A stretch of 64,000 nt of DNA, taken from an uncultured Candidatus Rokubacteria bacterium (GTDB lineage: Bacteria > Methylomirabilota > Methylomirabilia > Rokubacteriales > DASRDR01). Positions 8,982 to 64,000 of the stretch are shown in pieces. The translations under genes were made by a program, and so were the position numbers. The DNA is taken from contig CAWDVE010000013.1 in assembly GCA_963805625.1 (NCBI GenBank), positions 544,001-608,000 on the forward strand, given 5' to 3'. Each line of letters begins with the position of its first letter. Position 1 is the first letter of the stretch. Below the pieces are notes generated by a model that saw nothing but the letters and a program-made list of their open reading frames with translations, did not search any database and was not told the DNA's origin.

Positions 8982-9896
8982 ATGACCCCTGACCGTCCGC
9001 CAGCGTCAGCGCCGGCCCCAGCGTCGGCCAAGATCTCACGCGCGGGCCGCCTGCGCGCTCAGCTCGCCCGCGGGCGCCTCACGGTGCCGAGCTGCTACGA
9101 CGCGCTCGGCTTCCGCATGATCGCCCGGGCCCGCTTCCCGGCGGCCTTCCTCAGCGGGTTCTCGGTGTCCGCGGCCCGGCTCGGGGTTCCGGACGCCGGC
9201 CTCCTGTCCTACGGCGAGATGGCGGCGCAGGCCCGCGACGTGGCGGCGTCGGCGTCGATTCCCCTGATCGTCGATGGCGACACGGGCTTCGGCAGCGCGC
9301 AGAACGTGCAGCGCACGGTCCGAGGCTTGGCCGCGGCCGGCGCCGCGTGTCTCATGCTGGAGGACCAGGAAAGCCCGAAGCGGGACTTCGGAGCGCCCGG
9401 CGCGGTGGCTCCGCGAGCTGACGCCCTTCGCCGGGTGAAGGCGGCCGTCCAGGCTCGCGAGGCCGGCGCCGAGATCCTGATCATCGGTCGCACCGACGCC
9501 CGCAACGCGGCCGGGCGAGCCAGCGGGCTGGACGAGGCGCTGTGGCGCGCCGCCGCGTTCGCGGACCTCGGCGCCGATCTCGTGTTCGTCACCGGGCCGC
9601 ACGACGCAACGGAGCTCGGGCGCGTCCGCGGCGCCGCCCGGGTGCCACAGATCGTTCAGGTGGACGAACCGGGTCGGACATGGCTCGGGCCGGCCCAAGT
9701 CCACGAGCTCGGCTTCGAGGTCGCGCTGTACGGGATCTCGCTCGTGCTCGCGGCCGCCGCCGCGTTTCGAGACGCGCTGGCCGCGATGGCCGCCGGCCGG
9801 CCGCTGCCGGACGATCGGGCCGTCACGTCCGGGGAGATCGGCGACATCGTCGGGGTAGCCGACTACCTCGCCGTCGAGCGCGACCTGGAGAGCTGA
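8982..9896 (+). CDS. Isocitrate lyase/PEP mutase family protein
   Basis: YDA, SGFSVSAARLGVPD, VDGDTGFG, LEDQ, GRTDA; catalytic loop reads KRDFG. Confidence 0.82.
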   Translation: MTPDRPPASAPAPASAKISRAGRLRAQLARGRLTVPSCYDALGFRMIARARFPAAFLSGFSVSAARLGVPDAGLLSYGEMAAQARDVAASASIPLIVDGDTGFGSAQNVQRTVRGLAAAGAACLMLEDQESPKRDFGAPGAVAPRADALRRVKAAVQAREAGAEILIIGRTDARNAAGRASGLDEALWRAAAFADLGADLVFVTGPHDATELGRVRGAARVPQIVQVDEPGRTWLGPAQVHELGFEVALYGISLVLAAAAAFRDALAAMAAGRPLPDDRAVTSGEIGDIVGVADYLAVERDLES

Positions 9897-49787: not shown

Positions 49788-50543
49788 TCAGCGGCCGGGC
49801 TGCACGATGAGCGGCGCGCCCTGGCCCGGCCCGGGGGCGATCGCCAGTCCCACGGCACTCTCCTGGTACGGGATGCCGCGCTCCGCGAGCCGCCGGGCCA
49901 GCGCCGGCAGGTCTCCGGTCCGGAGCCGCAGCGCCGTGAACGTCGGCTTGGGGTAGCCTCCGCCCAGCGGGCTCAGCTGGATCATGAGCCCGGCCAGACT
50001 CAGCTGGACGACCGAGCCGTCCTCCGGCGCGAAGCCCCGGGTCATCCCGAACAGGTCCTGCAGGCGCTGGGCTGCCGCGCCCACGTCGGCGACCTTCCCA
50101 TGGACCGCCGCGAGCGCGAGCGGCGTCTCGGGCAGAGGGGCTTCCGCCGACGGCGTCGCCAGCTCCACCAGGAGCTTCTCGCAGGAGCGCGGGTGGACGA
50201 AGGCGACCTTGCCGGCGAGACCCTGGCGCGGCTTCCCGTCGATCATGTCGACCCCGGTCCCGAGGAACCGCCGCACCTCGCGCACGACGTCGTCCGACTC
50301 GAAGCAGACATGGTGCAGGCCTTCGCCGCGGCCGGCCAGGAAGCGCGCGACCCCCGAGTCGGGCGTCGTCGGCGCCAGCACTTCCACCTCTCCCGGGCCG
50401 CAAGCCAGGAGCGCCGCCCGGACACCCTCCTCGGGCAGATCGGCGGAGCGGAGAAGGGGGAGCTCGAGCGTGTCGCGCCAGAAGGCGAGCCCGGCGTCCA
50501 GGTCCTGGACGACGACGGCGACGTGGTGGATGCGGGTGATCAC
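49788..50543 (-). CDS. VOC family protein (methylmalonyl-CoA epimerase-like N-domain plus degenerate second domain)
   Basis: IHHVAVVV, EVLAP, RGEGLHHVCF, VAFVHP...LVEL. Confidence 0.78.
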   Translation of the reverse strand: MITRIHHVAVVVQDLDAGLAFWRDTLELPLLRSADLPEEGVRAALLACGPGEVEVLAPTTPDSGVARFLAGRGEGLHHVCFESDDVVREVRRFLGTGVDMIDGKPRQGLAGKVAFVHPRSCEKLLVELATPSAEAPLPETPLALAAVHGKVADVGAAAQRLQDLFGMTRGFAPEDGSVVQLSLAGLMIQLSPLGGGYPKPTFTALRLRTGDLPALARRLAERGIPYQESAVGLAIAPGPGQGAPLIVQPGR

Positions 50544-50693
50544 CGCCCCTCACCCTACCCTACGCCCCCGGGAATGCAAAGAGGCCCGGGGCCCGGCCAC
50601 GATTCATGAACCCTCCGGGAGGGAGGCCTCCGTCGATGTCGAGGCGATGAGGACACGAGCCCTGGCGCCGTGCGCTACGCCTGCCGTGTGAAA

Positions 50694-50705
50694 CATGTTA
50701 ACATG
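50694..50705. promoter_or_regulatory. Palindromic operator overlapping an extended -10 of the TA operon
   Basis: CATGTTAACATG perfect palindrome containing TGnTAACAT, 7 nt before ATG 50712. Confidence 0.6.
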
Positions 50706-50711
50706 CCGCCC

Positions 50712-50966
50712 ATGAAGACGATGACGGTGCGAGATATTCGCTTGAAGTGGCCGGAGGCGGAACGCGCGCTGGCGCGAGAGGGCGAGATCATCGTCACCCG
50801 GGACTCGAAGCCAATCGCACGCATCCTGCCCTACGAGGCCTCTCCGCGTGCCCGTCGCGTCCGCTTCGATCCTGACGCGCAATTACGCTGGCTCGGCCGG
50901 TTCTGGCGCAACCGCCCGCCAGGCCCGTCCACGGACGAGCTGCTCCGCCGCGACCGGGAGGCGTAG
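50712..50966 (+). CDS. Phd/YefM-like antitoxin
   Basis: MKTMTVRDIR...GEIIVTRDSKPIARI.P. Confidence 0.78.
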   Translation: MKTMTVRDIRLKWPEAERALAREGEIIVTRDSKPIARILPYEASPRARRVRFDPDAQLRWLGRFWRNRPPGPSTDELLRRDREA

Positions 50967-50972
50967 CGTCCG

Positions 50973-51407
50973 GTGAGCCTCTACCTCGACACGAGCTGCT
51001 TGCTGAAGACGCTCTTCCCCGAGCCCGAAGCCGAGCGGGTGATGCGGCTCGTCGCCGCCGAGGAACACGTCGTCGTGTCTACCCTGGCGCGCCTGGAGAC
51101 GCTGGTCCAGATATACGCGAGGGGCGCCGGCGGCCTCCTCGAGGACACCGCCGTGCGGTCGCTCGCCGCCCGCCTCGAAGCCGTCCTCCGCCAGGCGCCC
51201 TACGAGGTCGTTCGGACGCCGGCGGAGGTGGTGGACGTGGCCGAGAGACACCTGCGGTCGCTCCCGCGAGAGGCCCACTGTCCGACGTCGGACCGGCTGC
51301 ATCTGGCGGTGATGAGGTCGCTCGATGTGCGCCGCCTCCTCACCAACGACGATGCCCAGGCCCGCGCGGCCCGAGCGCTGGGGTTCGCCGTGATCGTTCC
51401 GCGCTGA
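50973..51407 (+). CDS. vapC: PIN-domain toxin
   Basis: YLDTS.LLK, E, D.LHLA, LLT.D..Q..AA..LG acidic PIN residues. Confidence 0.82.
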   Translation: MSLYLDTSCLLKTLFPEPEAERVMRLVAAEEHVVVSTLARLETLVQIYARGAGGLLEDTAVRSLAARLEAVLRQAPYEVVRTPAEVVDVAERHLRSLPREAHCPTSDRLHLAVMRSLDVRRLLTNDDAQARAARALGFAVIVPR

Positions 51408-51413
51408 TCGGCG

Positions 51414-52535
51414 CTACGCGCCCCGGAGCTTCAGCAGCGCCACCGTCGCGACGGGGCGCGCGAAGCCCTTGAGGGCGAGATCCCCCACCAGCTCGGCCTC
51501 GATGAGGTCCTCGACCGCCGCCACCACACGCTTGGTGGCGAGCACCTGGCCGGGCCGCGCCTCGCTGCACAGGCGGAAGGCGACATTGGTCACGCTGCCG
51601 ATCGCGCCGTAGTCCCATCGACCCTCGAACCCGATGGCGCCGATGGTGGCGAATCCCTTCGCGAGCCCGAGGCCGACGTCGAGCTCGTAGCCCCGCTTGC
51701 GCCAGCCGGCCGCGAGCTCGGTGACGCGGTCCCGCATGGCGAGCGCCATCCGGACGGCGCGCTCGTCCGGGTTCGGGACGACCACCGGGTCGTTGAAGAA
51801 GACCATCATGCCGTCGCCGGCGAAGCGCTCCAGCGTCCCCTCGTGCGCCACGACGAGCGTGCCCATCTCGTGGTGGTACTCGCGGAGGACGCCCATCACC
51901 TCTTCCGGCTCGGCCGTCTCGGCGAAGGCCGTGTAGCCGCGCAGGTCGAGGAAGACGACCGTGACGTCGCGGCGGTGGGTGCGGAGCGGGTCGTCGGCTC
52001 CCCCGGACACGATCAGCTCCGCCAGCTGCGGCGAGAAGAAGCGCTTGAGCTTCGAGAGCCGCTCGAGCTGGCCGACCTGGTCCGTGACCCGCTGCTCGAG
52101 CGTCTGGTTCAGCTCGGCGAGCTGCGCCGACTGGGCCTCGACCGTGTCGTAGAGCTCCTTGATCCGGAGGAGCGACCGCACGCGCGCGAGCAGCTCGGGC
52201 AGGTTGATCGGCTTGGTGAGGAAGTCGTCCGCCCCCGCCTCCAGCCCCTTGATCCGCTCCGAGGACGGGTCGAGCGCCGTGACCATCACCACCGGCATGA
52301 TCCCGGTCGTGCCGGCGGCCCGGATCCGCTGGCACACCTCGTAGCCGCTCATGCCCGGCATGACGACGTCCAGGAGGACGAGGTCCGGCCGCTCGGCCTC
52401 GACCTTCGCGAGGGCCTCGGCGCCGGACGCCGCCGTCACCACCGCGTAGCCCTTCACCGTCAGGAGGTCGGCGAGGAGCTTGACGTTCTGGGGGGTGTCG
52501 TCGACGACGAGGATCTTGGCGGGCGCGGACGCCAT
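51414..52535 (-). CDS. Response regulator with class III nucleotide cyclase output
   Basis: REC (VDD, LLD, KP) plus FLDLRGYT, FAGDG, DYGAIG..TN.A.R. Confidence 0.88.
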   Translation of the reverse strand: MASAPAKILVVDDTPQNVKLLADLLTVKGYAVVTAASGAEALAKVEAERPDLVLLDVVMPGMSGYEVCQRIRAAGTTGIMPVVMVTALDPSSERIKGLEAGADDFLTKPINLPELLARVRSLLRIKELYDTVEAQSAQLAELNQTLEQRVTDQVGQLERLSKLKRFFSPQLAELIVSGGADDPLRTHRRDVTVVFLDLRGYTAFAETAEPEEVMGVLREYHHEMGTLVVAHEGTLERFAGDGMMVFFNDPVVVPNPDERAVRMALAMRDRVTELAAGWRKRGYELDVGLGLAKGFATIGAIGFEGRWDYGAIGSVTNVAFRLCSEARPGQVLATKRVVAAVEDLIEAELVGDLALKGFARPVATVALLKLRGA

Positions 52536-52924
52536 CAGGCGCCTCCCCGGGGGCCGGCCGCCAGGACCCCCGCCACCAGCTGGATGAAGCCCTTCACGTC
52601 GATCGGCTTCGACTGGTAGGCGTCGAAGCCGGCGGCCAGGATCCGCTGCCGGTCCTGTGTCATGGCGGAGGCCGTGACGGCGACGATGGGAATGTGGCGG
52701 GTGCGCGGGTCGGCCCGGAGGTGGCCGAGGGCGTCGATCCCGTTCATGCCCGGCAGCTGGATGTCCATCAGGATGAGCGCCGGCTGGGACTCCCGCGCCA
52801 GCTCGAGACCGAGCTCCGCCGTCTCCGCCTCGAGCGTGCGGTAGCCCTTGAACTGGAGCACGTCCCGCACCAGCTTCCGGTTCTTCTCGTTGTCCTCGAC
52901 GATCAGGATCAGCTCGCCGGCCAT
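52535..52924 (-). CDS. Single-domain response regulator (DivK-like)
   Basis: IVEDN, LMDIQLPG, VTASAM, KPI. Confidence 0.88.
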   Translation of the reverse strand: MAGELILIVEDNEKNRKLVRDVLQFKGYRTLEAETAELGLELARESQPALILMDIQLPGMNGIDALGHLRADPRTRHIPIVAVTASAMTQDRQRILAAGFDAYQSKPIDVKGFIQLVAGVLAAGPRGGA

Positions 52925-55900
52925 GGCCTCACGGGTAGGTTGAAGGTGAAGGTCGAGCCATCCCCGAGGCGGCTCTTGACCCAGATCCGTCCGCCGTGGA
53001 GATCGATGAACCGCCGCGCGAGGGCGAGCCCGAGCCCCGTCCCCTCGCGCTTTCGCGCGTAGTCCGTGCCCACCTGGCGGAACTCCTGGAAGATCGCCTC
53101 CTGGTCCTCGGGCGCGATCCCGATCCCGGTGTCGGACACCGAGATCTCCACCGCGCCGTCGGCCGGCACCGCGCGCACGGCGACGCGCCCCCCCTCCGGG
53201 GTGAACTTGACGGCATTGGACAGGAGGTTCAGGAGCACCTGCCGGATCTTCCGCTCGTCGCCCACGAACGGCCCGAGCCGGTCGTCGACCGACACGTCGA
53301 GCGCGAGCCCGTGGCGGGTCGCCCGCTCGCGGACCAGGATGACGGCGCTGCCGATCGCCGCCGGGAGGTCGAAGCGCGAGAGGTCGAGCTCCATCCGCCC
53401 CGCCTCGACCTTCGAGAGATCGAGGATGTCGTTGATGAGGGCGAGGAGATGGCGGCCCGAGGAGAGGATGTCCTGGATGTACTCGGCCTGCTTGTCGTTG
53501 AGCTCGCCGAACATGCGCTCCCCGAGGACCTCGGAGAAGCCGATGATCGCGTTGAGCGGCGTGCGGAGCTCGTGCGACATGTTCGCGAGGAACTCGGACT
53601 TGTGGCGGCTGGCCGCCTCGAGCTCCCGGCTCTTGTCCTCCAGCTCGCTGAAGAGCCGGGCGTTCTGGATCGCGATGGCGGACTGGGCGGCGAGCGTCTT
53701 CAGGAGGTCGACGACCTCGGGGGCGAAGCGTCCCGGATTCTTCCGGGCCACCACGAGACCGCCCAGGACGCGGCCCTCCCGGACCAGCGGCACCGCGAGG
53801 ACCGCCCGCAGGCCCGATCGCGTCATCGCGTCGCGCAGCCGGCTCTCGTACGCGCCGGGGTCCAGGATGTCCGGGATCTCCACCGGCTGCCGGGTGACGG
53901 CGACCCGCCCGACCGCGCCCTCCCCGATGGGGATCGGGGCCGCGCGCAGGACCGTCACGAGCTCGGGGTCGAAGCGCTGCGTCGCGCGCAGGTGGAACAC
54001 CCGCTGCGCCTCGTCGTACTCGTAGATGCCGCCGCCGTCGGCGCCGGCCAGGAGGTCGGCGCGCGACACGATGGTCGTCAGCACCGTCTCGACGTCGAGC
54101 GTCGAGCTGACCGCCTGGCCGACCGCGCCGAGCGCCTGGAGCTGCTCGACGGAGCGCGCGAGGTCCTGCGTGCGCGCCTGCAGCTCCTGGAAGAGCCGGG
54201 CGTTCTCGATCGCGATGACCGCCTGGCTGGCGAAGGTGGACACGAGCTGGATCTGCTTGTCCGTGAACGGGCGGATCTCGCGCCGGTACATCATGATCGA
54301 GCCGATCATCTGGCCCTCCCGCACCAGCGGCACGCCGAGGACGGTCCGGACTCTCTCCGTCCGGACGATCTCCTCGAGCTGCGGGTCCTGCATGACCGCG
54401 GTCGTCGTGACGTCCTCGATGTGCACGGGGTGCCAAGGGCCCTCCGGCCGGAACATGGGCCGGCCTACGCGATAATCTCGGGTCCGGAGAAGCTCCGCGA
54501 ACACCGGCCCCACCCCGCGCCACGCCGCGGCGTCGAACGTCTCGCCTTCCAGCCGGAAGACCGCGCCGAGCTGCGACTCAGAGAGCGCGCAGGCCTTGTC
54601 GAGGATGGTGTCGAAGACGGGGGCAAGGTCGGTCGGCGAGCTCGAGATGACCCCGAGGATCTCCGCCGTCGCGGTCTGCTGCTCGAGCGCCTCGCTGAGG
54701 TCGACATTCCGCCGCTCGAGCTCCTGGAACAGGCGCACGTTCTCGATTGCGATCACGGCCTGAGCGGCGAACGTCTGCAGGAGCTGGACCTGCTTCTCGG
54801 TGAACGGCACCACCTCGGCGCGACGGATCAAGATCGCGCCGATGGGGACCCCCTCCCGCAGGAGCGGCGTCGCGAGGGTCGTGCGGTGGCCGTAGCGCCG
54901 GGCCATGTCTCGACCCCGAGGATACTCGTCGCCGGCGGCCGCCAGATCGGGCACGTGGATGGGACGCCGATCCACTACCGCGCGGCCGGTCACCCAGTCG
55001 CGCCCGATCCGGTAGTCGTCAGTCGGGTCGGCCTTCGGGATCGGGCCGTAGCCCGCCTCGTGGCGAAGGGTTTCACCGTCCACGCGGAAGATGACCGCGT
55101 CACGCGCCGCGCAGACGCGCGCGGCGTTCTCGGCCACCGCGTCCAGGACGGGCTGGATGTCCGTCGGCGAGCTCGAGATGACCCGCAGGATCTCCGCCGT
55201 GGCGGTCTGCTGATCGAGGGCCTCGCTGAGCTCGCGCGTCCGGTCCTCGACCTTGTGCTCGAGGTTGGCGTACGACTCCTGGAGGTGGGCCGCCATGCGG
55301 TTGAACTGGTCGGCGAGCCCCTCGAGCTCGTCGCCCGTCTTCACGTCGATCCGCTGGTCGAGCGCGCCCGCCCCGATCCGCTCCGCGCCCGCCTGGAGCG
55401 CCCGGATCGGCGTCGTCATGCGCCGGGCCAACAGGAGGCTCGCCAGCATCGAGAGCGCGACGCCGGCGATGAGCAGGCCGACGGTGCGGTACGCCGAGGC
55501 ATAGAGGGGCGCGAGGGCCTCGCCGAGGGGCTGCTCCACGAAGACCCACCAGCCGAGCGGCGAGATCGGCGCCGATGCCGTCAGGACCTGGCGCCCGCCG
55601 GAGTCCTGGGCCACGGTCATCTCCCGGTCCGGCGAGCCCGGCGCCGGCGGGCCGGCCAGCGCCGTCCGGACCTGATCGAGCCGCGAGAGGTCGGTCTTCT
55701 GAAGGACGAGGCTGATGTCCGGGTGGGCGACGAGCTGACCCCGGCCGTCCACGACGTAGGCGCGTCCCGTCGACCCGATCCGGATCTGGGAGACGACGTC
55801 CCAGATGAACTTCAGGTTGACCTCGGCGACGGTCACGCCCGCGTCGCCGCCGCCGGCCACCGAGAGCGTGAGGTAGGGCTCGGACTCCTTCCGGAAGTAG

Positions 55901-56355
55901 ACGGGCCCGAAGTACGGCCGGCCCGGCCGCGCCTCCTTGAAGCGCGGATCGGTGGAGAAGTCGGCCTGGCTGCCCACCACGTCCATTGCCAGACGGGAAA
56001 CGCGCAGCTGTTCCCGGCCCGCGGTGTCGAGCTGGCTCACTTCGGTGACCGCGGGCGCCTGGCGCTGGAGGCGGATGAACTCGAAGCGCCGCTGCTCGAT
56101 CGTCTGCCGGGTGCCGACCTGGCCCTGGCTCGCCCATCCCACCTGGCGCTCGATGTCGCGGACGAAGGCGTCGATGCGCGCGGCGGCCCCGGCCGCCTGC
56201 TCCCGCTGGAGCGACACCACGGCCGCCAGGTTCTCGCGATAGGAGAAGTAGAGCTCGACGAGGCCGCTGGTGAGCAAGGCGCCGCTCACCAGGATCGCGA
56301 AGAGCACGACGTACTTCCAGAACAGCCGGCCTCGCGGCCGCACGGGTGGCGGCAT
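52909..56355 (-). CDS. Sensor histidine kinase (Cache-HAMP-3xGAF-HisKA-HATPase)
   Basis: Two TM helices, repeated EQQTATAEIL..ISSSPTD GAF linkers, MSHELRTPLN, NAVKFT, DTGIG, GTGLGL. Confidence 0.92.
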   Translation of the reverse strand: MPPPVRPRGRLFWKYVVLFAILVSGALLTSGLVELYFSYRENLAAVVSLQREQAAGAAARIDAFVRDIERQVGWASQGQVGTRQTIEQRRFEFIRLQRQAPAVTEVSQLDTAGREQLRVSRLAMDVVGSQADFSTDPRFKEARPGRPYFGPVYFRKESEPYLTLSVAGGGDAGVTVAEVNLKFIWDVVSQIRIGSTGRAYVVDGRGQLVAHPDISLVLQKTDLSRLDQVRTALAGPPAPGSPDREMTVAQDSGGRQVLTASAPISPLGWWVFVEQPLGEALAPLYASAYRTVGLLIAGVALSMLASLLLARRMTTPIRALQAGAERIGAGALDQRIDVKTGDELEGLADQFNRMAAHLQESYANLEHKVEDRTRELSEALDQQTATAEILRVISSSPTDIQPVLDAVAENAARVCAARDAVIFRVDGETLRHEAGYGPIPKADPTDDYRIGRDWVTGRAVVDRRPIHVPDLAAAGDEYPRGRDMARRYGHRTTLATPLLREGVPIGAILIRRAEVVPFTEKQVQLLQTFAAQAVIAIENVRLFQELERRNVDLSEALEQQTATAEILGVISSSPTDLAPVFDTILDKACALSESQLGAVFRLEGETFDAAAWRGVGPVFAELLRTRDYRVGRPMFRPEGPWHPVHIEDVTTTAVMQDPQLEEIVRTERVRTVLGVPLVREGQMIGSIMMYRREIRPFTDKQIQLVSTFASQAVIAIENARLFQELQARTQDLARSVEQLQALGAVGQAVSSTLDVETVLTTIVSRADLLAGADGGGIYEYDEAQRVFHLRATQRFDPELVTVLRAAPIPIGEGAVGRVAVTRQPVEIPDILDPGAYESRLRDAMTRSGLRAVLAVPLVREGRVLGGLVVARKNPGRFAPEVVDLLKTLAAQSAIAIQNARLFSELEDKSRELEAASRHKSEFLANMSHELRTPLNAIIGFSEVLGERMFGELNDKQAEYIQDILSSGRHLLALINDILDLSKVEAGRMELDLSRFDLPAAIGSAVILVRERATRHGLALDVSVDDRLGPFVGDERKIRQVLLNLLSNAVKFTPEGGRVAVRAVPADGAVEISVSDTGIGIAPEDQEAIFQEFRQVGTDYARKREGTGLGLALARRFIDLHGGRIWVKSRLGDGSTFTFNLPVRPWPAS

Positions 56356-56516
56356 CCCCCCTCCGCGGAGTCAGTCGGGTGGCTCGGTGGCGGGCCCATT
56401 CTAGCGCGGACCGCCGGCTGGCCACGATGGCCGCGGGCGGGGCGCCGGCGCCGCCCGCCGGGCGGAGAGGAGGGCGCCGGCTGGCCGGCTGGACGCCGGG
56501 CGAGGGCGGATTCCGC

Positions 56517-56807
56517 CTACTTGGCCGTCGGCTGCCCCACCCGCACGATGCTACAGCCGTAGAGGTATCCGAAGAGATGGGTGTGGCCGCGACGGTCCCG
56601 GCGACGCCGGTCGTCGACGAGCGCGCCCGGGCTCTGCCGCCGCACCGCCTGCCGCCGGTCGACGATGACGTCGATCCCGCTCCCCGCGAGCATGCCCGCC
56701 AAGTAGTCGACCCGCGACGGCAGGCGGGGCGGGACCACGATCAGGAGGCGCCCAGCCACTCCATCGCTCGAGCTCCCCTCGTGATGCGGGGCACGCGGAT
56801 CGTCCAT
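56517..56807 (-). CDS. Small hypothetical protein with DRR repeats, paralog 1
   Basis: VIVDRR...RR...DDRRRRDRR; SD GGAGG; similar to 59776-60123. Confidence 0.7.
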   Translation of the reverse strand: MDDPRAPHHEGSSSDGVAGRLLIVVPPRLPSRVDYLAGMLAGSGIDVIVDRRQAVRRQSPGALVDDRRRRDRRGHTHLFGYLYGCSIVRVGQPTAK

Positions 56808-56819
56808 CGCCCGTTCCTC

Positions 56820-56855
56820 CAACATTCTCGGCAACATTCTCGGCAACATTCTCGG
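56820..56855. repeat. 12-bp tandem repeat x3
   Basis: CAACATTCTCGG x3 immediately upstream of the SD of the DRR protein. Confidence 0.85.
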
Positions 56856-56999
56856 TCCCATCATGGAGTTCGACAGGCAGGGAGCTGAAATGAATCCCGG
56901 GAAAGGCCGCAGATGCAGGGGCACGTAAAGGGAGTCCCGCGTGGAGTGGAGGCAATCACACTGTAACTACTACACGCAGCCTCCTGGTCCTGTCACCAG

Positions 57000-57026
57000 G
57001 CAAGAGATTGCTATGCAATCTCTTGC
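57000..57026. promoter_or_regulatory. Perfect 12-bp inverted repeat, candidate regulator binding site
   Basis: GCAAGAGATTGC-TAT-GCAATCTCTTGC, AT-rich, no U-tract. Confidence 0.55.
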
Positions 57027-57080
57027 ACATCTGGGATCGGGATGACTCGAGCGGGACGGCCGGTGAGGCCGATGCGCCCC

Positions 57081-58214
57081 CTAATCAGGAGGGGGACCTT
57101 TGGGAGGGGTAAGTCCACACTCGGTCAACTTGTTGAGGAGCGTCTTGTAGGAGACCTTCAGGATGCGCGCAGCTACCGTTCGGTTCCAGCGTACCCGCTC
57201 CAGAACCTCGGCGAGGGCCTTCCGCTCCGCATCCCGGGCTGCCCGACGCGCGATGGCCTTGAGGTCGAACAGGCCAGCCAGGGACTGGTCGGTCGCGGCC
57301 GCGGCTGGGCTCCCGGCGCGCCCGGGGTCGGGCGTCGCCGGAGCCGGCGCGGGGTCAGCGCTGGACGTCTGGATCCGTGCCAGCAGCTCCCGGTGAGCCC
57401 GGCGCGGGTCCCCGAGAACAACCAGGCGGCGAACAAAGTTCTCCAATTCGCGCACATTGCCGGGCCATGCGTAATCGCCCATGAGCGTTACGGTCTCGGC
57501 AGGCAACTCCGCCTCACGGGCATACTGAGTGTTGAACCGGGCAAGGAAGAATTGGGCCAACCCGGGGATGGCCTCCACGCGCTCGCGCAACGGGGGGACG
57601 TGCATCTCGACGACGTTGAGCCGGTAGTAGAGATCCTCGCGAAACTCACCGACTTGGATCGCGGCCTCGAGATCGCGGTTCGTGGTGGCGATCAGCCGGA
57701 CGTCCGCGTGGATCAGCTCCCGACCACCGACGCGCGTGAACTGAAGGTCCTGAAGGACGTGGAGAAGCTTCGCCTGGAGGGGACGTGGCATCTCCCCGAT
57801 CTCGTCGAGGCACAGCGTCCCGCCGCCGGCGAACTCGAAGCGGCCGGGCTTTCGGCGGTAGGCGCCGGTGAACGCTCCCTTCTCGTGGCCGAACAGCTCG
57901 GACTCGAGGAGCCCGCCCGGCAGCGCGGCACAGTTGACCAGCACGAACGGCCCGTCACGCCGCCTCGAGGCCGCATGGATGGCGCGCGCAACCAGGTTCT
58001 TGCCGACCCCGCTCTCGCCGCGGATCAGGACCGTCGCGTCCGTGCGGGCGACCTCGCGAATCACCTCGAGCAAGGCCCGCATCCGCGGGCCCAGGCCGAA
58101 CAGCGGGAGGTACTCGTCGAGGCTCCGAACGCCCGATTCTGATTCGGGTGCGGATGCCTCCGGCCCATCCGGGACCGCGCGAGCGCGTGAACCGCGCGCA
58201 GCGCCCTTTTTCAT
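57081..58214 (-). CDS. Sigma-54-dependent activator (AAA+ plus Fis HTH) with no N-terminal sensor domain
   Basis: [45 protein letters not shown]. Confidence 0.9.
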
Positions 58215-58377
58215 CAAGAACTCGCCCTCATCCGGCACGTTGGTTGGGTTGTGCAGACACTCCTCTTACCTTATTCTCATATCATCTAATTGCATATTTT
58301 TCTGTTCTAATGATAAGCTCAGGGAGCGTTCAATCGGGAGGGGCAGTCTGGAGGGACCGTTTCAATCGGGAGGCACG

Positions 58378-58737
58378 ATGCACATCGTGATCATCGACGA
58401 CGAGATTGTCGTGGCCGAAACCCTCGCCGAGGCGGTCAGAGGGCAAGGGCACACCGCGGCCGTCGCCCGCTCCGGCTCGGAAGGACTGGCTCTGCTCGCC
58501 GAGAAGACGCCCGATGCCGTGTTCCTGGATCTGGTCATGCCTGGATTGAGCGGTGTGGAGCTGCTGCGGGAGATCCGGCGCGGCAATCCGGAGCTGCCGA
58601 TCGTCGTGGTCACGGGCTGGGCGGGACCCAAGGATCTCGATGAGGTCAGGCGCCTGGGGGTGACCGACATCGTCGAGAAACCTTGGGCGCTCAAGTACGT
58701 CGACGAGGCACTCCGAACCATCGGAGCCAATGAATGA
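58378..58737 (+). CDS. Single-domain response regulator
   Basis: IIDDE, FLDLVMPG, VVTG, KP; SD GGAGG. Confidence 0.85.
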   Translation: MHIVIIDDEIVVAETLAEAVRGQGHTAAVARSGSEGLALLAEKTPDAVFLDLVMPGLSGVELLREIRRGNPELPIVVVTGWAGPKDLDEVRRLGVTDIVEKPWALKYVDEALRTIGANE

Positions 58738-58739
58738 GT

Positions 58740-59010
58740 GTTCGGCGCCCTGCGCCCGCAGTGGCGCGGACGCGACAGCTCTGAGAGCATTCGCCTCACG
58801 GAGTAGCGCCGTCCGATCGGGGGCAGTCATCGGATAGCAGCTCGCCCCCACGCTCACCGACACGATCTGCCGTCCCCGAACGAAGCGCCGCCCTTCCGGC
58901 AACGGGGCGTTCGCGGCCCGATCAAGAATCCTGGCAAGCATTCCTGGCTCGGTATCGACCAGGAGCAGGGCGAGGATCTCCCGCGACAGCCTCGTGGCGA
59001 CGAACCTCTA
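58740..59010 (-). pseudogene. Degenerate GGDEF-like C-terminal remnant
   Basis: ATRLS...LALLLVD...VSVSVGASCYP..A.D...LL.EA; upstream in-frame stop. Confidence 0.45.
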
Positions 59011-59049
59011 CACGGTCTGCTACGGGGCCGCGACGCCGGTACCTGCAGA

Positions 59050-59584
59050 ATGGTCGAGTTCAGCGCGCCGAGCTTCAGCGCGGCGGAGAACGTGAGTCCA
59101 GCCAAAACATCCCGGTGCGCCGCGCGGGAGACCTGACCGGAACCGTCACGGTCAACCTCACGACGAGCAACGGGACGGCCCAGCAGGGTCAGGACTATTC
59201 GAACGCCAGCCAGCTGGTGACCCTCGGGCCCAACGTCGCCAGCGCGGTCGTCGGCGTGCCGATCGTCAACAACGGGACCCGCAGGACCCCCGCACGGTGC
59301 TCCTCAGCCTCACCGGCCCTGGCGGCGGGGCCACGCTCGGGCCGCTCAGCACGGCCGTGCTCACGATCAACACGACGACCCGCGGGTCCGCTTCAGCAGT
59401 ACGACGCCGATCAGGTACGCTCACGTTCGGCACCAACGAGACGAGCAAGACGTTCACGGTGCCGGTGCATACGAATGCGGGATCCGCGGCGAACAAGTCC
59501 GTGACCCTGACGCTATCGAGCCCGTCGACCGGGGCCACCCTGGGCGCGCCTAGCCCGGCGACACTCCGGAGCGTGAGCGACTGA
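59050..59584 (+). pseudogene. Calx-beta domain surface protein remnant (frameshifted, deleted)
   Basis: VEFSAPSFSAAEN / GTVTV..TT.NGTA..G.DY / SGTLTF..NETSKTFTVPV / LTLS.P..GATLG in different frames. Confidence 0.7.
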
Positions 59585-59775
59585 GCCCGGTCCAGGGTGT
59601 GATGTTCAGCGCCGGCCCTGGGCGGGAGGCTTCGCTCGTCAGCTGGCCGAAGCCTCGACGGCAGGTTGAGCAGACTCGGCAGGAGCTGCGGCGGCTTCGC
59701 CACGGTGGGCGCCGAGGCGGCGAGCCGCGGTGTGTAACGTGTGGCGCCGGCGACCGGGCGGCGCGTCTTGGCGTT

Positions 59776-60123
59776 TTAGCTTTCCGGCCACCGTCCGGAA
59801 CCGCCCCGGTGGAACTGCAGCACGGATCCTTCGAACCCCCCGCTCGCACGCGGCTCTCTCGCCGGGGACTCCGCGGGCCCGCCAACGGTTGTGGGCACTC
59901 CCACCGCGACGACCGGGCACGCGTAGACGTACGCCACGACTCGTGTCGCGGCACGGCGATCGCGGTGGCGCCGCTCCGCGGCGGCCGCCTGACGGGCACG
60001 CCGACGGTCTCCCTGACGTCGGTCGACGATGACGCGAATGGTACTCCCCGCCAGCACGTCCTTGAGGGTAGCCGCCCGCGATGAAAGGTCGCGCGGCACG
60101 ATGACCACGAGGTTGAGATCCAT
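59776..60123 (-). CDS. Small hypothetical protein with DRR/ERR repeats, paralog 2
   Basis: VIVDRRQGDRR...ERRHRDRR...YVYAC; similar to 56517-56807. Confidence 0.65.
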   Translation of the reverse strand: MDLNLVVIVPRDLSSRAATLKDVLAGSTIRVIVDRRQGDRRRARQAAAAERRHRDRRAATRVVAYVYACPVVAVGVPTTVGGPAESPAREPRASGGFEGSVLQFHRGGSGRWPES

Positions 60124-60477
60124 CTTCGGCGCGCATACGCTCCGTTCCACGCGGTCTCTCCCGACGGAGTCCCCAGCAAGTTTGTCGCCACCCCCCACCC
60201 GGAGGCCTGGTGACTCCACGCCAAGTCGCCAATCCCTCCACCAGACGGCCCGACAGGAGGCTTTTCCACCGCCAGGACCCAGGGCCACGCGGCTCGCCGA
60301 GCAGTAAGCTCGATGCCCTCAATGCGAAGGCCGTTGCACAGGGAGTGCACTAAACTGCCGTCATCTGCCCGTAGGACCGACAACCGATGCACACCCGGAG
60401 TCCACAGTCCACCGGACCGCCGCAGTCCTCCAGGAACGAACGGCCGCTGGCGTCCCTGAGGCGGTCCTGATCCGCCC

Positions 60478-60519
60478 ATCTTGACAGGCCACCGATGAAT
60501 CTTGACAGGCCACCGATGA
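60478..60519. repeat. 21-bp tandem duplication containing TTGACA
   Basis: ATCTTGACAGGCCACCGATGA x2. Confidence 0.85.
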
Positions 60520-60538
60520 ACCGGTGAGGATGCTGCGG

Positions 60539-61798
60539 ATGAGCCACCCTCGCGGTGCCGGCGTCCCGTGGATCTCCTGGTGGGCCGGGTTACGCGGGCC
60601 AGACCAACGGGCGAGACCGACCCGAGCGTGGCGGAGATCCAGGCGCGCCGGGGTCCACGCGCTCAGCGCCGCGCTCGGCCTGGCTCTCCTCGCGGGTCCG
60701 GAAGCGGCGTTGGCCCAGGGGCCATGGACGTTCACCCCGTCCCTCCGCGTCGCGGAACGGTACACCGACAACGTCTTCGGAACGGCGGACGATCGCAAGT
60801 CCGACTTCATCACCGAGATCACACCGGGGATCGCCCTCTCCTACGAGGCGCGCCTCTTGCGGATGTCGGCCAGCTATTCAGCAACCGGGGAGATCTACGC
60901 CGACAACTCTGATCTCGACAACTTCGGCGAGAACCAGAACGGCTCGCTCGGACTCGACTACCGGCCCGAGGAGCGCCTGGGCCTCCGCCTCGCCGGCTAC
61001 TATGTCCGGACGAACGATCCATCGTCGTTCCTGGTGGCGCCGGCCGCCGCGCCGCCTGGTACCGTTGTCGTCCCGACCGTCGAGACGACCCGCCACGAGA
61101 CCGCCGTGTTCACACTCTCGGCTGCGGGCGACTACCGCTTCACTTCGCGGTTCTCCGGCCGGGCCGGCTATGCCTTCTCCTACCTTAAGCAGGAAGGGGA
61201 AGAGGACGGCCGCTCTCATACCGGGGACCTCGGCGGGGACTACCAGCTGACGCGGCAGGATGTGGGGTTCTCCACTCTCTCGGTCTCGGCGCTCGACTCG
61301 ACCGAGTCCGACACGAGCGCCGCACTCCTCCTCGGCTGGCGCCGGCAGTGGTCGGCCAACCTCACGACGAGCGTGGCCGCCGGCCCCCGCATCACCGATG
61401 GCACCTGGAGGGGAGCCGCCGATGCGTCGGCCACCTATCAGGCCGCGCGCGAGTGGTCGTTCACGCTCGCCTACTCGCTCGGGACCGGCCTCGCCGTGGG
61501 GACCACGGGGGCCCAGACCGTCTCGGCGCTCACCGCGTCCACCGCCTACCAGGCGTCCCGGGAGCTTTGGTTCACCGCGAGTGGGGGATGGACCCTGACG
61601 TCGCCCCTCGATGGGGGGCCGGACGAGGAGACGACCAACGCCTACGGCGCGGGTGTCTCGGCGTTATATCGGCTCACGACGTGGCTCACGCTCAGGCTGA
61701 GCTACCGGTTCTCCCTCGAGGATCAGAGCCGGGGGGATTCGATCCTCACCAACGAGGTGACCCTCGGGCTCACGGCGGCGTACCCGATCCGGTTCTGA
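60539..61798 (+). CDS. Outer-membrane beta-barrel protein of polysaccharide (EPS/PEP-CTERM-type) loci
   Basis: Signal ending ALAQ, FTPSL.V.E.YTDNV, SDFIT.I.PGI, alternating beta-strands, C-terminal F; start uncertain. Confidence 0.75.
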   Translation: MSHPRGAGVPWISWWAGLRGPDQRARPTRAWRRSRRAGVHALSAALGLALLAGPEAALAQGPWTFTPSLRVAERYTDNVFGTADDRKSDFITEITPGIALSYEARLLRMSASYSATGEIYADNSDLDNFGENQNGSLGLDYRPEERLGLRLAGYYVRTNDPSSFLVAPAAAPPGTVVVPTVETTRHETAVFTLSAAGDYRFTSRFSGRAGYAFSYLKQEGEEDGRSHTGDLGGDYQLTRQDVGFSTLSVSALDSTESDTSAALLLGWRRQWSANLTTSVAAGPRITDGTWRGAADASATYQAAREWSFTLAYSLGTGLAVGTTGAQTVSALTASTAYQASRELWFTASGGWTLTSPLDGGPDEETTNAYGAGVSALYRLTTWLTLRLSYRFSLEDQSRGDSILTNEVTLGLTAAYPIRF

Positions 61799-62020
61799 CT
61801 GGGCCGGATCGCTCTCCCTGAGGTCCCCTCGGCAGAGTCTCTTCGGATGGGAAGACGCTCATCACGTGGCGTCCCCGCCGGGCCGATGGGCAATGCCCTT
61901 CACAATGGGTAACGCGCTACCCAGGAAGAGCAACCGCGAACTGAGGGATGCCTGCCATTGCCCGTTCGGAACACTCCCCGATGCGCAAGTATTTTCAATG
62001 GTTCTCGGGATGACCTCGGC

Positions 62021-62035
62021 TGGCACGGAGGTTGC
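62021..62035 (+). promoter_or_regulatory. Sigma-54 (-24/-12) promoter
   Basis: TGGCACGGAGGTTGC matches TGGCAC-N5-TTGC with exact GG-N10-GC spacing. Confidence 0.8.
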
Positions 62036-62076
62036 GGAACAGTCTCCTCGCCAATGTGTGGGCTGGAACCGGTCAC

Positions 62077-63546
62077 TTGATCAAGGAACGCGCAGTCCTC
62101 GTCCTAGAGTCCGACCCTGTGAGCCAGCATGGGCTCCAGACGGCACTCCGGAACCTCGGGTACCGGGCGGTGCTCGCGGCCTCCCTCGACGACGCGGTCG
62201 TCGCGCTCGGCCGGGACGACTACGTGTGTTGCCTCCTCGCCGCGCGGTTCGAAGGGCGGGACGGGTTGGATCTCCTCCGCCGGCTTCGGGACGATGGACG
62301 CTCGCCGGCCCCGGTGATCCTCATCGCCGACGAGCAGGACACGCGACGGGTCTCCGAGGCGGCGGCGCTCGGCGCGGAGGACTTCCTCCCGAAGCGCTTC
62401 CACCCGGCCGACCTCGAGAACATCCTCAAGGAGGTCGAGGCCCGCCCGCGGGCGGCGACCCCCCCGGCGACGTCAGCGACGCCAGCGACGCCAGCGACGG
62501 AAGACGGCGACGACCCCGCGGCCCAGATCCGCCGCCAGGTAGCGCTCTGGCAGAGCCCCCGGATGGCCGAGGTCTGGGAGACCATCCAGCAGGCCGCGCG
62601 GGTCGACGTCACCGTCCTCATCGAGGGCGAGACCGGGACCGGCAAGGACGTAGTCGCACGGGCGATCCACCAGCTCTCGTCCCGCCGGGCGCAGCCCTTC
62701 GTGAATGTGAACTGCGCGGCCATGCCCCGGGAGCTCCTCGAGTCCGAGCTCTTCGGCCACGAGCGAGGGGCCTTCACGGGCGCCCACCAGACGCAGCCGG
62801 GGAAGTTCGAGCTCGCGAACCGCGGCACGATCTTCCTCGACGAGATCGGGGACCTCCACCCGGCGCTCCAGGCCAAGCTGCTGCACGTCCTCCAGGACGG
62901 CACCTTTTCCCGCGTCGGGGGCCGGGCGCCGATCGAGGTGGACGTGCGGATCCTGGCCGCAACGAACCGGGACCTCGAGCGCGAGGTCGAGGCGATGCGG
63001 TTCCGGGAGGACCTCTTCTACCGCCTGAACGTCATCCAGATCATCGTGCCGCCCCTCCGCGAGCGGATGGAGGAGCTGCCGCTCCTGGCCGCGCACTTCG
63101 CGCGGCGCTACGCGAAGCTCTTCCGCCGCGAGGGCTTCGTGCTCGCGCCGGCCGCGATGGAGCGCCTTAGCCACCACCGCTTCCCGGGGAACGTCCGGGA
63201 GCTCGAGAACCTCGTGAAGCGGATGATCGTCCTCGACGACCCCGGGCTCGACCGCACGCCGTTCCTGCGCACGGGCCGGGCCAACGGGGACGACCCCCGG
63301 GCGGGGACCGGGCCGGGCGGCGCGAACGGCGAGCCCCAGCCGACACCCCGGGCCAGCGTGGTGCCGCTCAAGGAGGTCGCCCGGGCGGCGGCGCGGGCCG
63401 CCGAGCGCGAGGCGATCGCCCGCATCCTCGAGGAGACCGGCTGGAACCGCGTCCGGGCCGCCAAGATCCTCAAGATCAGCTACCGGGCACTGCTCTACAA
63501 GATCAAGGACGTGGGGCTCGGCCAGCTGCCCGAATCGAGCCAGTGA
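62077..63546 (+). CDS. NtrC-like sigma-54 activator with pseudo-receiver domain
   Basis: GETGTGK, GAFTGA, LDEIGD, FPGNVREL, Fis HTH; REC has CLLAARF in place of the phospho-Asp. Confidence 0.88.
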   Translation: MIKERAVLVLESDPVSQHGLQTALRNLGYRAVLAASLDDAVVALGRDDYVCCLLAARFEGRDGLDLLRRLRDDGRSPAPVILIADEQDTRRVSEAAALGAEDFLPKRFHPADLENILKEVEARPRAATPPATSATPATPATEDGDDPAAQIRRQVALWQSPRMAEVWETIQQAARVDVTVLIEGETGTGKDVVARAIHQLSSRRAQPFVNVNCAAMPRELLESELFGHERGAFTGAHQTQPGKFELANRGTIFLDEIGDLHPALQAKLLHVLQDGTFSRVGGRAPIEVDVRILAATNRDLEREVEAMRFREDLFYRLNVIQIIVPPLRERMEELPLLAAHFARRYAKLFRREGFVLAPAAMERLSHHRFPGNVRELENLVKRMIVLDDPGLDRTPFLRTGRANGDDPRAGTGPGGANGEPQPTPRASVVPLKEVARAAARAAEREAIARILEETGWNRVRAAKILKISYRALLYKIKDVGLGQLPESSQ

Positions 63547-63554
63547 GGGAGCCA

Positions 63555-64000
63555 ATGAACGGACGATTGGTGATGGCGCTTCAACGAGTCCTCGTCCTCG
63601 CCCTTCTCGTGGCGTGGGCGCTCGGAATCACTCCCGCACTCGCCCAGACGCCGGCCCCCGCCGGCGCGGCCGCCGCCCCGAGCGCCGCCCCCACCGGCGC
63701 GCCAGATGACTCGCCAAACAGCGCGGTCGACCCGAACGAGTACCGCATCGGGCCGGAGGATGTCCTCCAGATCTCCGTTTGGAAAAACGACCCGATGAGC
63801 TCGAGACAGCCGGTCCGGCCCGACGGGAAGATCACCCTCCCCCTCCTGAACGACGTTGCGGTGGCCGGTCTCACGCCCATGGAGTTGCGCGAGCTCCTCG
63901 TCCAGAAGATCGCCGAGTACATCCCCTCCCCCGAGGTATCGGTCATTGTCCTCGAGCCCCGGAGCTTCAAGGTCTCGGTGATGGGCGAGGTCCCGAAGCC
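63555..64000 (+). CDS. Polysaccharide export protein (Wza/Poly_export plus SLBB), partial
   Basis: EYRIGPEDVLQISVW, VRPDGKITLPLL.DV...GLT, V.V.GEV; runs off the window end. Confidence 0.88.
   Translation, partial: MNGRLVMALQRVLVLALLVAWALGITPALAQTPAPAGAAAAPSAAPTGAPDDSPNSAVDPNEYRIGPEDVLQISVWKNDPMSSRQPVRPDGKITLPLLNDVAVAGLTPMELRELLVQKIAEYIPSPEVSVIVLEPRSFKVSVMGEVPK

Follow-up and report, generated by a model that had tools for sequence, protein, structure and literature searches.

A widespread [D/E]RR-triplet domain in Rokubacteria and its possible role as a cyclic di-GMP receptor

Introduction

Several known binding sites for cyclic di-GMP (c-di-GMP) are built around arginine. The PilZ signature consists of RxxxR plus [D/N]xSxxG on a beta-barrel, and the c-di-GMP motif of BldD is RxD-x8-RxxD. 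Here we compare with such systems two small open reading frames, ORF1 and ORF2, from the minus strand of a 64,000-nucleotide (nt) stretch of DNA, hereafter the window, of an uncultured Candidatus Rokubacteria bacterium (GenBank assembly GCA_963805625.1, contig CAWDVE010000013.1, positions 544,001 to 608,000). The two share an arginine-rich domain, called DRR after its [D/E]RR triplets, and an earlier note on this DNA had singled them out as a candidate new family of c-di-GMP effectors. The genome (7.27 Mb) and the window both have a G+C content of 72%. Labels of genomes, contigs, loci, proteins, genera, families and sequencing runs given in brackets are our own.

The closest described system is the arginine-rich element (ARR) of the Cle proteins. 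Two reports (PMC5677366, PMC7382256) describe it as a tandem [Y/F]xGP[D/E][R/K]R peptide that binds an intercalated c-di-GMP dimer. They also describe the peptide CSP1, unfolded without ligand, which binds a c-di-GMP dimer via DRR-x11-[R/K]RxxD: D154/R155/R156 and R169/D172 read the guanines, two Tyr stack on them, and binding was weakened when single residues were deleted from the CSP spacer. The ARR partner domains named in the former report include cNMP-binding and adenylsucc_synt (PMC5677366). Small Arg-rich DUF1127 proteins are reported to contact the kinase PhoR directly and so to act on it (PMC12501420).

ORF1 and ORF2 are paralogous genes

ORF1 (DRR1; 56517..56807, minus strand) encodes 96 amino acids (aa) plus stop and ORF2 (DRR2; 59776..60123, minus strand) 115 aa plus stop. 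Both are present where the earlier note had placed them, and both are stand-alone members of the [D/E]RR-triplet family, the former of a 'GYLYGC' and the latter of a 'VVAYVYACP' subfamily. The alignment of their cores on which that note relied was borne out: the two proteins align without a gap over 75 residues at 49% identity (BLASTP E 2e-8), and their Smith-Waterman score of 171 was not reached by any of 2000 shuffles (mean 29, sd 5.3). With the Arg-rich loop removed, either flank on its own (the N-terminal beta-alpha-beta part or the C-terminal strands) still beat 2000 of 2000 shuffles, and the similarity is therefore not merely compositional. In a codon model derived from 197 long ORFs of the same genome, minus frame 0 was the best coding frame for both cores. 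Upstream extensions to GTG 56924 (ORF1) and GTG 60288 (ORF2) had a non-coding appearance in this model, so that ATG 56807 and ATG 60123 are the likely starts. A ribosome-binding site, GGAGGA, lies 7 nt ahead of ATG 56807, and the homologues of ORF2 begin at the same Met.

Sequence variation at ORF2 was seen in two contigs. A 185-nt contig from an RNA library (X20) lies on 59882-60066 and differs from ORF2 at 8 positions; six of these are listed, three being third-position changes (A59, R61, Y67) and three altering A46, A47 and T60. A DNA contig (X2) spans 59806-60227 and has one extra, inserted nucleotide at 60190, ahead of ATG 60123. These differences fit an ORF2 protein that is under selection and starts at 60123. 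RNA-library cover of the ORF1 region (56437-56710) was of low depth; contigs of this kind cover small parts of the stretch, cannot show transcription and are uninformative where they leave it uncovered.

A large and uncatalogued protein family

Among 885 candidates, ORF2 has 31 homologues at E<=0.01, all of them unnamed or 'hypothetical' and 92-128 aa long; the metagenome homologues reach E 1e-16, with one further match at E 1.9e-3. In the resulting 33-row alignment V9, L20, R36, R40, R41, R52, R56 and R57 are invariant and the C-terminal RVVAYVYACPVV is almost so. A profile built from this alignment matched 1260 cluster representatives (clusters at 50% identity) at E<=1e-3 in a collection of 1.84 billion proteins, and most of the 150 best listed family proteins are 66-120 aa long. 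The profile also found matches in 41 of 41 related genomes, mostly several per genome. In the genome under study, hmmsearch on six-frame ORFs yielded 22 family members at E<=0.01, and a broader profile gives 23.

The survey of distribution that the earlier note had called for placed the DRR module in 122 of the 151 genomes of our phylum sample, with as many as 33 copies in one genome. Three families of the sample (f7, 0/10 genomes; f6, 0/2; f10, 0/2) and two large genomes of genus g40 gave no match. By record title, GTDB matches belong mostly to Methylomirabilota/Rokubacteria, with one locus each from Aminicenantes, Thermoleophilia and Acidobacteriota and three from an 'uncultured bacterium'. 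What had been proposed as a new family from two paralogues is thus an uncatalogued family indeed, far wider than those two.

ORF1 and ORF2 are old relatives within it. In a quick maximum-likelihood tree (153 rows, 101 columns, many forks unresolved), ORF1 groups with P0047 and other metagenome proteins in a clade of 10 rows (SH-aLRT branch support 98) and ORF2 falls into one of 29 rows (90), the two clades being sisters (94). Because they sit in separate sister clades, we regard them as old paralogues of a 'Y-x-Y-x-C hairpin' subfamily and not as a recent duplication. No ORF1- or ORF2-type orthologue was found among 40 relatives. The best match outside this genome (E 5e-15) covers only profile positions 6-61, and the metagenome and GTDB loci for which context is available hold distant members only, at 29-56% identity. 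A different picture is offered by five paralogues of the same genome (C11:168894-169256, C13:15510-15941, C25:2-331, C14:80693-81298, C10:354098-354565), which form a tight, near-identical group with an extra Arg-rich repeat; several adjoin ABC_sub_bind (PF04392) genes and transposases, which suggests that they spread recently together with mobile DNA.

No family for ORF1, ORF2 or canonical members was found in Pfam, NCBIfam, PHROGs or PADLOC, and the family profile matched nothing among PDB sequences at E<=1. The ESM Atlas returned only Rokubacteria/Methylomirabilota clusters without protein names (scores 0.87-0.89). In the literature on arginine-rich proteins, c-di-GMP and Cle, on small proteins of Rokubacteria and on sigma-54 small proteins, no description of the family was found. 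Taken together, the [D/E]RR-triplet family is large and uncatalogued in the libraries searched.

A G+C content of 72% favours Arg codons and long spurious ORFs, and on that ground both frames might be chance ORFs with a compositional likeness of their Arg-rich parts. The probability of this is practically negligible, given that both flanks outside the loop outscored every shuffle, that the coding frame is the best frame, that variants in related contigs are synonymous at conserved residues, and that the 31 homologues retain conserved hydrophobic strands and belong to a family of 1260 representatives. On the strength of the homologues, the codon model, the family size and the flank shuffles, chance was rejected. 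ORF1 and ORF2 are real paralogous genes and, with homologues and a best coding frame, they are conserved as proteins as the earlier note had assumed.

The [D/E]RR loop and its predicted setting

With an alignment of 133 rows, AlphaFold2 produced a model of ORF2 residues 1-80 with a pLDDT of 78.8 and a pTM of 0.62; an earlier run with only 33 close homologues was poor past residue 35 (pLDDT 64.8). The predicted domain core consists of beta1-alpha1-beta2, a loop, and beta3-beta4. Its elements are placed by the model at residues 4-9 (beta1), 11-23 (alpha1), 30-33 (beta2), 34-59 (the loop, of low confidence, with block means of pLDDT 64-79) and 60-66 and 69-74 (the beta-hairpin). Disorder is predicted for the C-terminal 35 or so residues of ORF2.

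The Arg-rich loop comprises residues 34-57 of ORF2 (59953..60024, minus strand), which read DRR-QG-DRR-x8-ERR-HR-DRR and thus contain four [D/E]RR triplets. In ORF1 it comprises residues 50-73 (56589..56660, minus strand; DRR-QA-VRR-x8-DRR-RR-DRR), where Val replaces the acidic residue of the second triplet. The family consensus is [DE]RR-x2-[DE]RR-x8-[DE]RR-x2-[DE]RR, and the 24 residues can be read as the unit [DE]RR-x-G-[DE]RR repeated in tandem every 16 residues. Across the 133 family members, in ORF2 numbering, triplet positions are conserved at 89-100%: D34 in 126 members, R35 in 130 and R36 in 132; [E/D]39 in 123, R40 in 131 and R41 in all 133; [E/D]50 in 121, R51 in 123 and R52 in 133; [D/E]55 in 119, and R56 and R57 in 133 each. 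G38 is found in 94. The spacers are hardly less constant (x3 in 133/133, x9 in 120/133, x3 in 130/133), and aromatic residues (F/W/Y) make up 41 of 3081 loop residues, or 1.3%. Since the spacing is strict and the acidic residues are conserved, the loop fits a defined pocket rather than an unspecific polycation.

Fold comparisons gave no clear relative. Foldseek returned nothing from the PDB at E<=1e-3 (best E 1.1, TM 0.24) and VIA-align no Z of 5 or more among 48161 chains (best Z 3.6); the searches yielded only scattered weak thioredoxin-/glutaredoxin-like rows, and blanks of this kind do not establish a new fold. The module gave no Response_reg match (PF00072), and only its first beta-alpha-beta resembles a Rossmann-like start.

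Likeness to described c-di-GMP-binding and Arg-rich proteins

The DRR loop shares with the Cle ARR a short tandem [D/E]-[R/K]-R element after Gly (G-[DE]-R-R) and a predicted flexibility. As in CSP1, an RRxxD follows a [DE]RR element (E39RR-x9-R51R52xxD55). The DRR module also appears to be graftable in the manner of the ARR, occurring after receiver (REC) and cNMP-binding domains, and it echoes the list of ARR partner domains in having cNMP-binding fusions and, in one locus (L075), a DRR gene that starts 5 nt after purA (adenylosuccinate synthetase). Unlike the two elements of the ARR, which form a C-terminal tail on a CheY-like receiver, the four DRR triplets are embedded in a predicted folded beta-alpha-beta-beta-beta domain. 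The ARR is alphaproteobacterial, whereas the DRR family, for which c-di-GMP binding is a prediction made here, is found mainly in Methylomirabilota and Acidobacteriota. Neither the aromatic/Pro motif nor the x11 spacing nor the receiver extension of the Cle ARR was found in ORF1 and ORF2, which stand alone.

The DRR module resembles PilZ in being small and mobile, stand-alone or fused to REC, signalling or membrane proteins, in having RxxxR (R36-R40, R52-R56), and in being encoded at times beside GGDEF/HD-GYP genes. It differs from PilZ (PF07238) in that it lacks [D/N]xSxxG and its predicted fold is not a beta-barrel. The PilZ profile gave no match; ORF1 and ORF2 matched no Pfam family at E<=0.1, and in 39 relatives none covered the module at E<=1e-3. 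Arg/Asp pairs are a further point in common with the RxxD inhibitory site of GGDEF domains and with BldD, RRxxD being present in at least 119 of the 133 members; those sites lie on unrelated folds, whereas the DRR pairs lie within a four-fold repeat of one loop. DUF1127 proteins, which are reported to act in signalling (PMC12501420, PMC11707872), are likewise small, basic and multi-copy in bacteria. They are shorter, lack the triplet repeat and the beta-alpha-beta core and, as judged from the blank Pfam search, have no sequence relation to DRR. The Arg-rich likeness to c-di-GMP binders that the earlier note had pointed to therefore holds as a resemblance, and membership of the Cle ARR or PilZ families does not. 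By analogy, the DRR domain may work like both and belongs to neither.

Domain architectures

Domain content was scanned in 39 family proteins, and 63 DRR genes were called across 69 fetched loci. Two or three DRR copies occur in tandem in four proteins (P0044, P0051, P0053, P0057). A REC domain precedes DRR in one protein, the only such case of the 39 scanned (P0068), and a cNMP-binding domain does so in two (P0107, P0184), a pair also encoded by adjacent genes (L067). Single proteins join GNAT (P0195) or a cytidylate-kinase-like domain (P0088) to DRR. In MASE1-PAS-HisKA proteins, DRR replaces the ATPase domain (L187, 2347-4413, minus strand; L204, 445-2310, plus strand; a partial HisKA+DRR form is P0078); with DRR in the place of HATPase_c, these are kinase-like sensors unable to autophosphorylate as built.

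A conserved large form is a protein of about 1200 aa composed of a double Zn-ribbon, a class III cyclase, AAA_16, TPR and a C-terminal DRR (L097, 1543-5280; L099, 1583-5239; L100, 5017-8586; L199, 254-4102; also L033 and L037), in which cyclase, AAA_16 and TPR were verified with Pfam. From their length and position, some 13 of the 63 DRR genes belong to this type; L030, cut by a contig end, shows AAA_16 and TPR only. After it there is often a gene for an 84-aa protein on the opposite strand, and one for a PEP mutase or an amino-acid permease.

At the N-terminus, DRR is joined to a degenerate sigma-54 AAA+ domain without Walker A, GAFTGA or helix-turn-helix (HTH) (P0196-P0199, one of them source-named Vicinamibacterales) and to an RsbW-like HATPase_c_2 domain (L055, L057). 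Other forms add a coiled coil (L193, L198) or a C-terminal Zn-ribbon-like domain (L201, L202). In two loci, an N-terminal DRR head is followed by hydrophobic segments and an SLT lytic transglycosylase domain (L191, 1169-2077, minus strand; L200, 863-1777, plus strand), giving a cell-wall enzyme with a cytoplasmic DRR head. Because DRR occurs at N- and C-termini and on membrane proteins, it fits a mobile cytoplasmic signalling module. PilZ modules show comparable mobility across architectures.

Gene neighbourhoods and c-di-GMP genes

Neighbourhoods were surveyed around 18 other DRR loci of the same genome (131 proteins) and at about 45 metagenome and GTDB loci (149 proteins). In the former, the neighbours were a mixed set in which transporters and enzymes of metabolism occur together with several transposases, a reverse transcriptase and HicA. 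Against its 22-23 DRR genes, this genome has only 7 that encode GGDEF and 1 that encodes PilZ. A MASE1-PAS-GAF-GGDEF gene (C12:189004) has two DRR genes near it, at 2.4 and 4.5 kb, and the sole PilZ gene (C17:492384) lies 4.2 kb from a third. Two GGDEF/PilZ-DRR pairs were seen within 5 kb against an expectation of 0.24 that covers GGDEF and PilZ only, EAL and HD-GYP genes not being counted (rough Poisson, P about 0.03).

One association is a run of four genes on one strand (L118), namely GGDEF, REC-HD-GYP, DRR (8989-9222) and a short T2SSE (PilT-like) ATPase, with gaps of 62 and 32 nt. In two further loci (L060, L115), a GGDEF/HD-GYP pair of this type is divergent from the DRR gene. Among the 30 best loci of REC-HD-GYP orthologues in the order, 7 have an adjacent DRR gene; all 7 belong to genera g20 and g25, so that the GGDEF/HD-GYP/DRR operon is real and confined to one clade. 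A REC-PilZ gene is found two genes from a DRR gene in L066, and a sigma-54 AAA+ gene encoding a short activator lies directly upstream of one in L064. Elsewhere, an rpoS-like sigma factor and an NlpD-like gene adjoin the DRR gene in four loci (L065, L069, L072, L103), and an NYN (RNase-like) gene occurs with DRR in three (L076, L110, L113), a REC gene coming next in L110 and L113.

Across 110 genomes of the order, which are kin and not independent, DRR and GGDEF copy numbers were correlated (Spearman rho 0.40, nominal p 2e-5; DRR counts taken from the best 36 candidates per genome). Genome size does not explain this correlation, since GGDEF count versus size gave a rho of -0.15.

Candidate ligands and functions of the DRR domain

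From its sequence and architectures, the DRR domain is likely a cytoplasmic small-ligand sensor module. A receptor for c-di-GMP, or at least for a guanine nucleotide, is the best single reading that we can offer, and a tentative one. It draws by analogy on the loop, which would offer the chemistry of Cle four times with rigid spacing, one triplet per guanine. The clusters of GGDEF, REC-HD-GYP and DRR genes, the GGDEF and PilZ genes near DRR genes and the PilZ-like mobility of the module lend it plausible support, and the scarcity of known receptors in this genome (1 PilZ gene for 7 GGDEF and 22-23 DRR genes) plausibly counts in its favour too, as does the correlation of DRR and GGDEF copy numbers among these related genomes.

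Mechanistically, each acid-Arg-Arg unit would read one guanine as in the Cle ARR, Asp/Glu taking the Watson-Crick edge and Arg the Hoogsteen edge, with additional cation-pi stacking. The four triplets would in this way enclose all four guanines of the intercalated c-di-GMP dimer, and a floppy loop would fold upon ligand binding. The ordered loop, together with the sheet, might then alter the contact of the module, or of a domain fused to it, with a partner such as an AAA+ activator, a kinase or an ATPase; for ORF1 and ORF2, the neighbouring activator would be one candidate among others.

A considerable number of observations weigh against c-di-GMP. Short Arg/Asp motifs are easily matched in a genome of 72% G+C. 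Unlike the Cle ARR, the loop has no conserved aromatic (Tyr/Phe) or Pro, and unlike the x11 of CSP1, the R41-R51 gap is 9 in 120 of 133 members, the outer DRR standing 14 before RRxxD. Fusion of DRR to GGDEF, EAL or HD-GYP was not seen among the proteins scanned. The earlier note had expected a link of the family to exopolysaccharide (EPS) or signalling loci, and instead most neighbourhoods are unrelated to c-di-GMP or EPS (metabolic genes, transporters, transposases, rpoS/nlpD, NYN). GGDEF is present in 149 of the 151 phylum genomes, families without DRR included (f7: DRR 0/10, GGDEF 9/10), and one genome that is 94% complete (G026) has four DRR matches and no GGDEF match; phyletic coupling of DRR and GGDEF is absent, a result that ranges from uninformative to negative. 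DRR copies exceed GGDEF genes (up to 33 versus 6), which is unusual for a receptor. Finally, the cNMP-binding and cyclase-AAA-TPR proteins carry DRR in what we take to be the place of an HTH in their relatives, as would fit an output domain.

This last point leads to the main rival, that DRR is a nucleic-acid-binding output domain whose Arg-rich loop reads DNA or RNA, the stand-alone members being small regulators of transcription or RNA. The C-terminal position that DRR takes behind REC, cNMP-binding and cyclase-AAA-TPR modules is usually that of an HTH in response regulators and in regulators of the Crp and MalT/LAL types. The loop itself is strongly basic, and members lie beside rpoS-like sigma factors and NYN genes in the seven loci mentioned above. 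Base-reading basic regions are also known to have conserved Glu/Asp beside Arg; even so, four conserved acidic residues in a basic stretch would cost affinity for the backbone. On the degenerate AAA+, the RsbW-like ATPase and the membrane-anchored SLT protein, moreover, the module is N-terminal, a position of regulatory input, and it ends membrane-bound MASE1-PAS-HisKA proteins; because some forms are membrane-anchored, a DNA-binding role fits poorly. Foldseek, VIA-align and the PDB profile search revealed no similarity to a known DNA- or RNA-binding fold. We hold this explanation to be unlikely.

Rather improbable, in our estimate, is that DRR serves as a protein-protein adaptor with a docking triplet loop, or binds another anion (cAMP/cGMP, cGAMP, (p)ppGpp, polyphosphate or acidic lipids). 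The recurrent class III cyclase fusions, the cNMP-binding fusions and the REC-cyclase gene in the ORF1 cluster would suit such a role, membrane-fused members could touch lipids, and DUF1127 proteins offer a precedent in their reported contact with PhoR (PMC12501420). Nothing, however, singles out any of these ligands, no conserved partner is found beside the stand-alone genes, and the best match for a four-fold acid-Arg-Arg geometry would be a set of four guanine bases.

If DRR does bind c-di-GMP, annotation pipelines have entirely missed a receptor class of about 1260 clusters with up to 33 copies per genome. It would explain how c-di-GMP is read by an uncultured phylum of soil bacteria, which has 1-8 diguanylate cyclases and almost no PilZ domains, and it would be a compact natural scaffold akin in logic to engineered c-di-GMP-sequestering peptides. 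The wider proposal, made by analogy, is that DRR represents a new, widespread c-di-GMP receptor fold and the main effector class of Rokubacteriales and some Acidobacteriota, replacing the near-absent PilZ and wired to sigma-54 activators, kinases, cyclases, ATPases and cell-wall enzymes; this we consider doubtful. Should the ligand be another, DRR would still be one of the larger signalling domains that the libraries lack, and one whose motif is sharply defined.

The local gene cluster

On the minus strand, ORF1 is part of an ordered set of genes: a sigma-54 activator (58238-57081), ORF1, a HAMP/GAF histidine kinase (56355-52909), a REC gene (52535-52924) and a REC-class III cyclase gene (51414-52535). 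The activator (57081..58238), directly upstream of ORF1 at a distance of 273 nt, has an AAA+ domain with GESGVGK and GAFTGA, a lid and a Fis-type HTH (Pfam, NCBIfam), and no N-terminal regulatory domain. Divergent from it on the plus strand is a lone receiver domain (58375..58737; Pfam Response_reg E 1.8e-24). Beyond ORF2, the plus strand encodes a PEP-CTERM-type outer-membrane protein (60524/60710-61798), a REC-sigma-54 activator (62032/62077-63546) and an export protein (from 63543). A HAMP-GAF-GGDEF protein with GGEEF and an RxxD five residues upstream is encoded 13.2 kb away (41236-43362, minus strand). The context described in the earlier note, with sigma-54 activators, the lone REC and an export gene, was thus recovered, as was its active-looking diguanylate cyclase at 13 kb. 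The 'GGDEF-like scar' that it had placed between the two ORFs was not: there is no GG[DE]EF-like motif in the six frames of 56300-60600, and a six-frame GGDEF search of the genome found nothing between ORF1 and ORF2, where the activator, the REC gene and two overlapping Calx-beta fragments in different frames (59115-59584, plus strand; E 9e-9 and 9e-4) are located. The minus-strand ORFs 58333-58941, 58857-59105 and 59269-59703 have no Pfam match.

The closest syntenic relative (G004:C11) keeps the block of REC-cyclase, REC, kinase, activator and REC genes at 78-85% nucleotide identity. Its kinase-activator gap (L184, 8995-9638), 643 nt in length, has tandem repeats of about 95 nt in the place of ORF1 and no DRR-like frame (best hmmsearch E >0.01, filters off). 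Synteny stops near window position 59002, so that ORF2 and the PEP-CTERM/EPS genes are not beside the block in this relative. The Calx-beta fragments, which lie just past that end, are probably the remnant of a broken gene. The kinase of the window is some 150 residues longer than that of the relative (L184, 6017-8995, minus strand; 1144-1148 versus 993 aa), and blastn revealed an internal repeated segment, consistent with one extra GAF unit.

The earlier note went on to suggest that the two proteins sense or sequester c-di-GMP, that they modulate the sigma-54 activators next to them and that they thereby control the PEP-CTERM/EPS locus, a reading that overlaps with the c-di-GMP reading of the domain as a whole. 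An activator devoid of a regulatory domain beside ORF1 speaks for it, as do the fusions of DRR to a degenerate sigma-54 AAA+ domain (P0196-P0199) and the short activators that adjoin a DRR gene elsewhere (L064, G034:C68, and, in cross-matched scans with the DRR gene directly upstream, G028:C209 and G028:C26). Synteny tells against it: the relative retains the kinase-activator-REC block without ORF1 or an adjacent ORF2/EPS block, orthologues of the ORF1 or ORF2 type were found in none of the 40 relatives, and a DRR gene lies within 1.5 kb at only 2 of 30 loci of activator orthologues, one of which is this window. A conserved pairing with a regulatory-domain-less activator, as for a PspA-like trans-regulator, is therefore not seen at these 30 loci. 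Nor does either ORF have an upstream sigma-54 promoter, the minus strand of the whole window containing no site at <=2 mismatches. A link of DRR to regulatory-domain-less or degenerate sigma-54 AAA+ proteins does recur, in fusions and a handful of adjacencies, and is not conserved for ORF1 and ORF2; we judge their control of the local activators to be quite improbable.

Noncoding elements and promoters

Three elements lie on the minus strand near the two genes. Three tandem copies of CCGAGAATGTTG (56820..56855) are found immediately upstream of the ribosome-binding site of ORF1. A perfect palindrome, GCAAGAGATTGC-ATA-GCAATCTCTTGC (57000..57026), lies between the activator gene and ORF1 and could be a candidate protein-binding site or hairpin. 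Two tandem 21-nt repeats, TTCATCGGTGGCCTGTCAAGA (60479..60520), lie between the divergent genes for ORF2 and the PEP-CTERM outer-membrane protein. Searches for sigma-70 promoters, terminators and Rfam families gave nothing useful in 56300-60700 or 50000-64000.

The segment 58782-59002, that is, 220 nt downstream of the lone REC gene, is 82% identical to the relative (G004) at the nucleotide level, with no Pfam-matching ORF and no Rfam family; an RNA-library contig (X19) covers 58666-58851.

The only sigma-54 site at <=1 mismatch in the window is the near-consensus TGGCACGGAGGTTGCG (62021-62036, plus strand; 1 mismatch). Because it overlaps TTG 62032, the probable start of the REC-sigma-54 activator is near 62077, and the position of the site suggests that this activator may be autoregulated.

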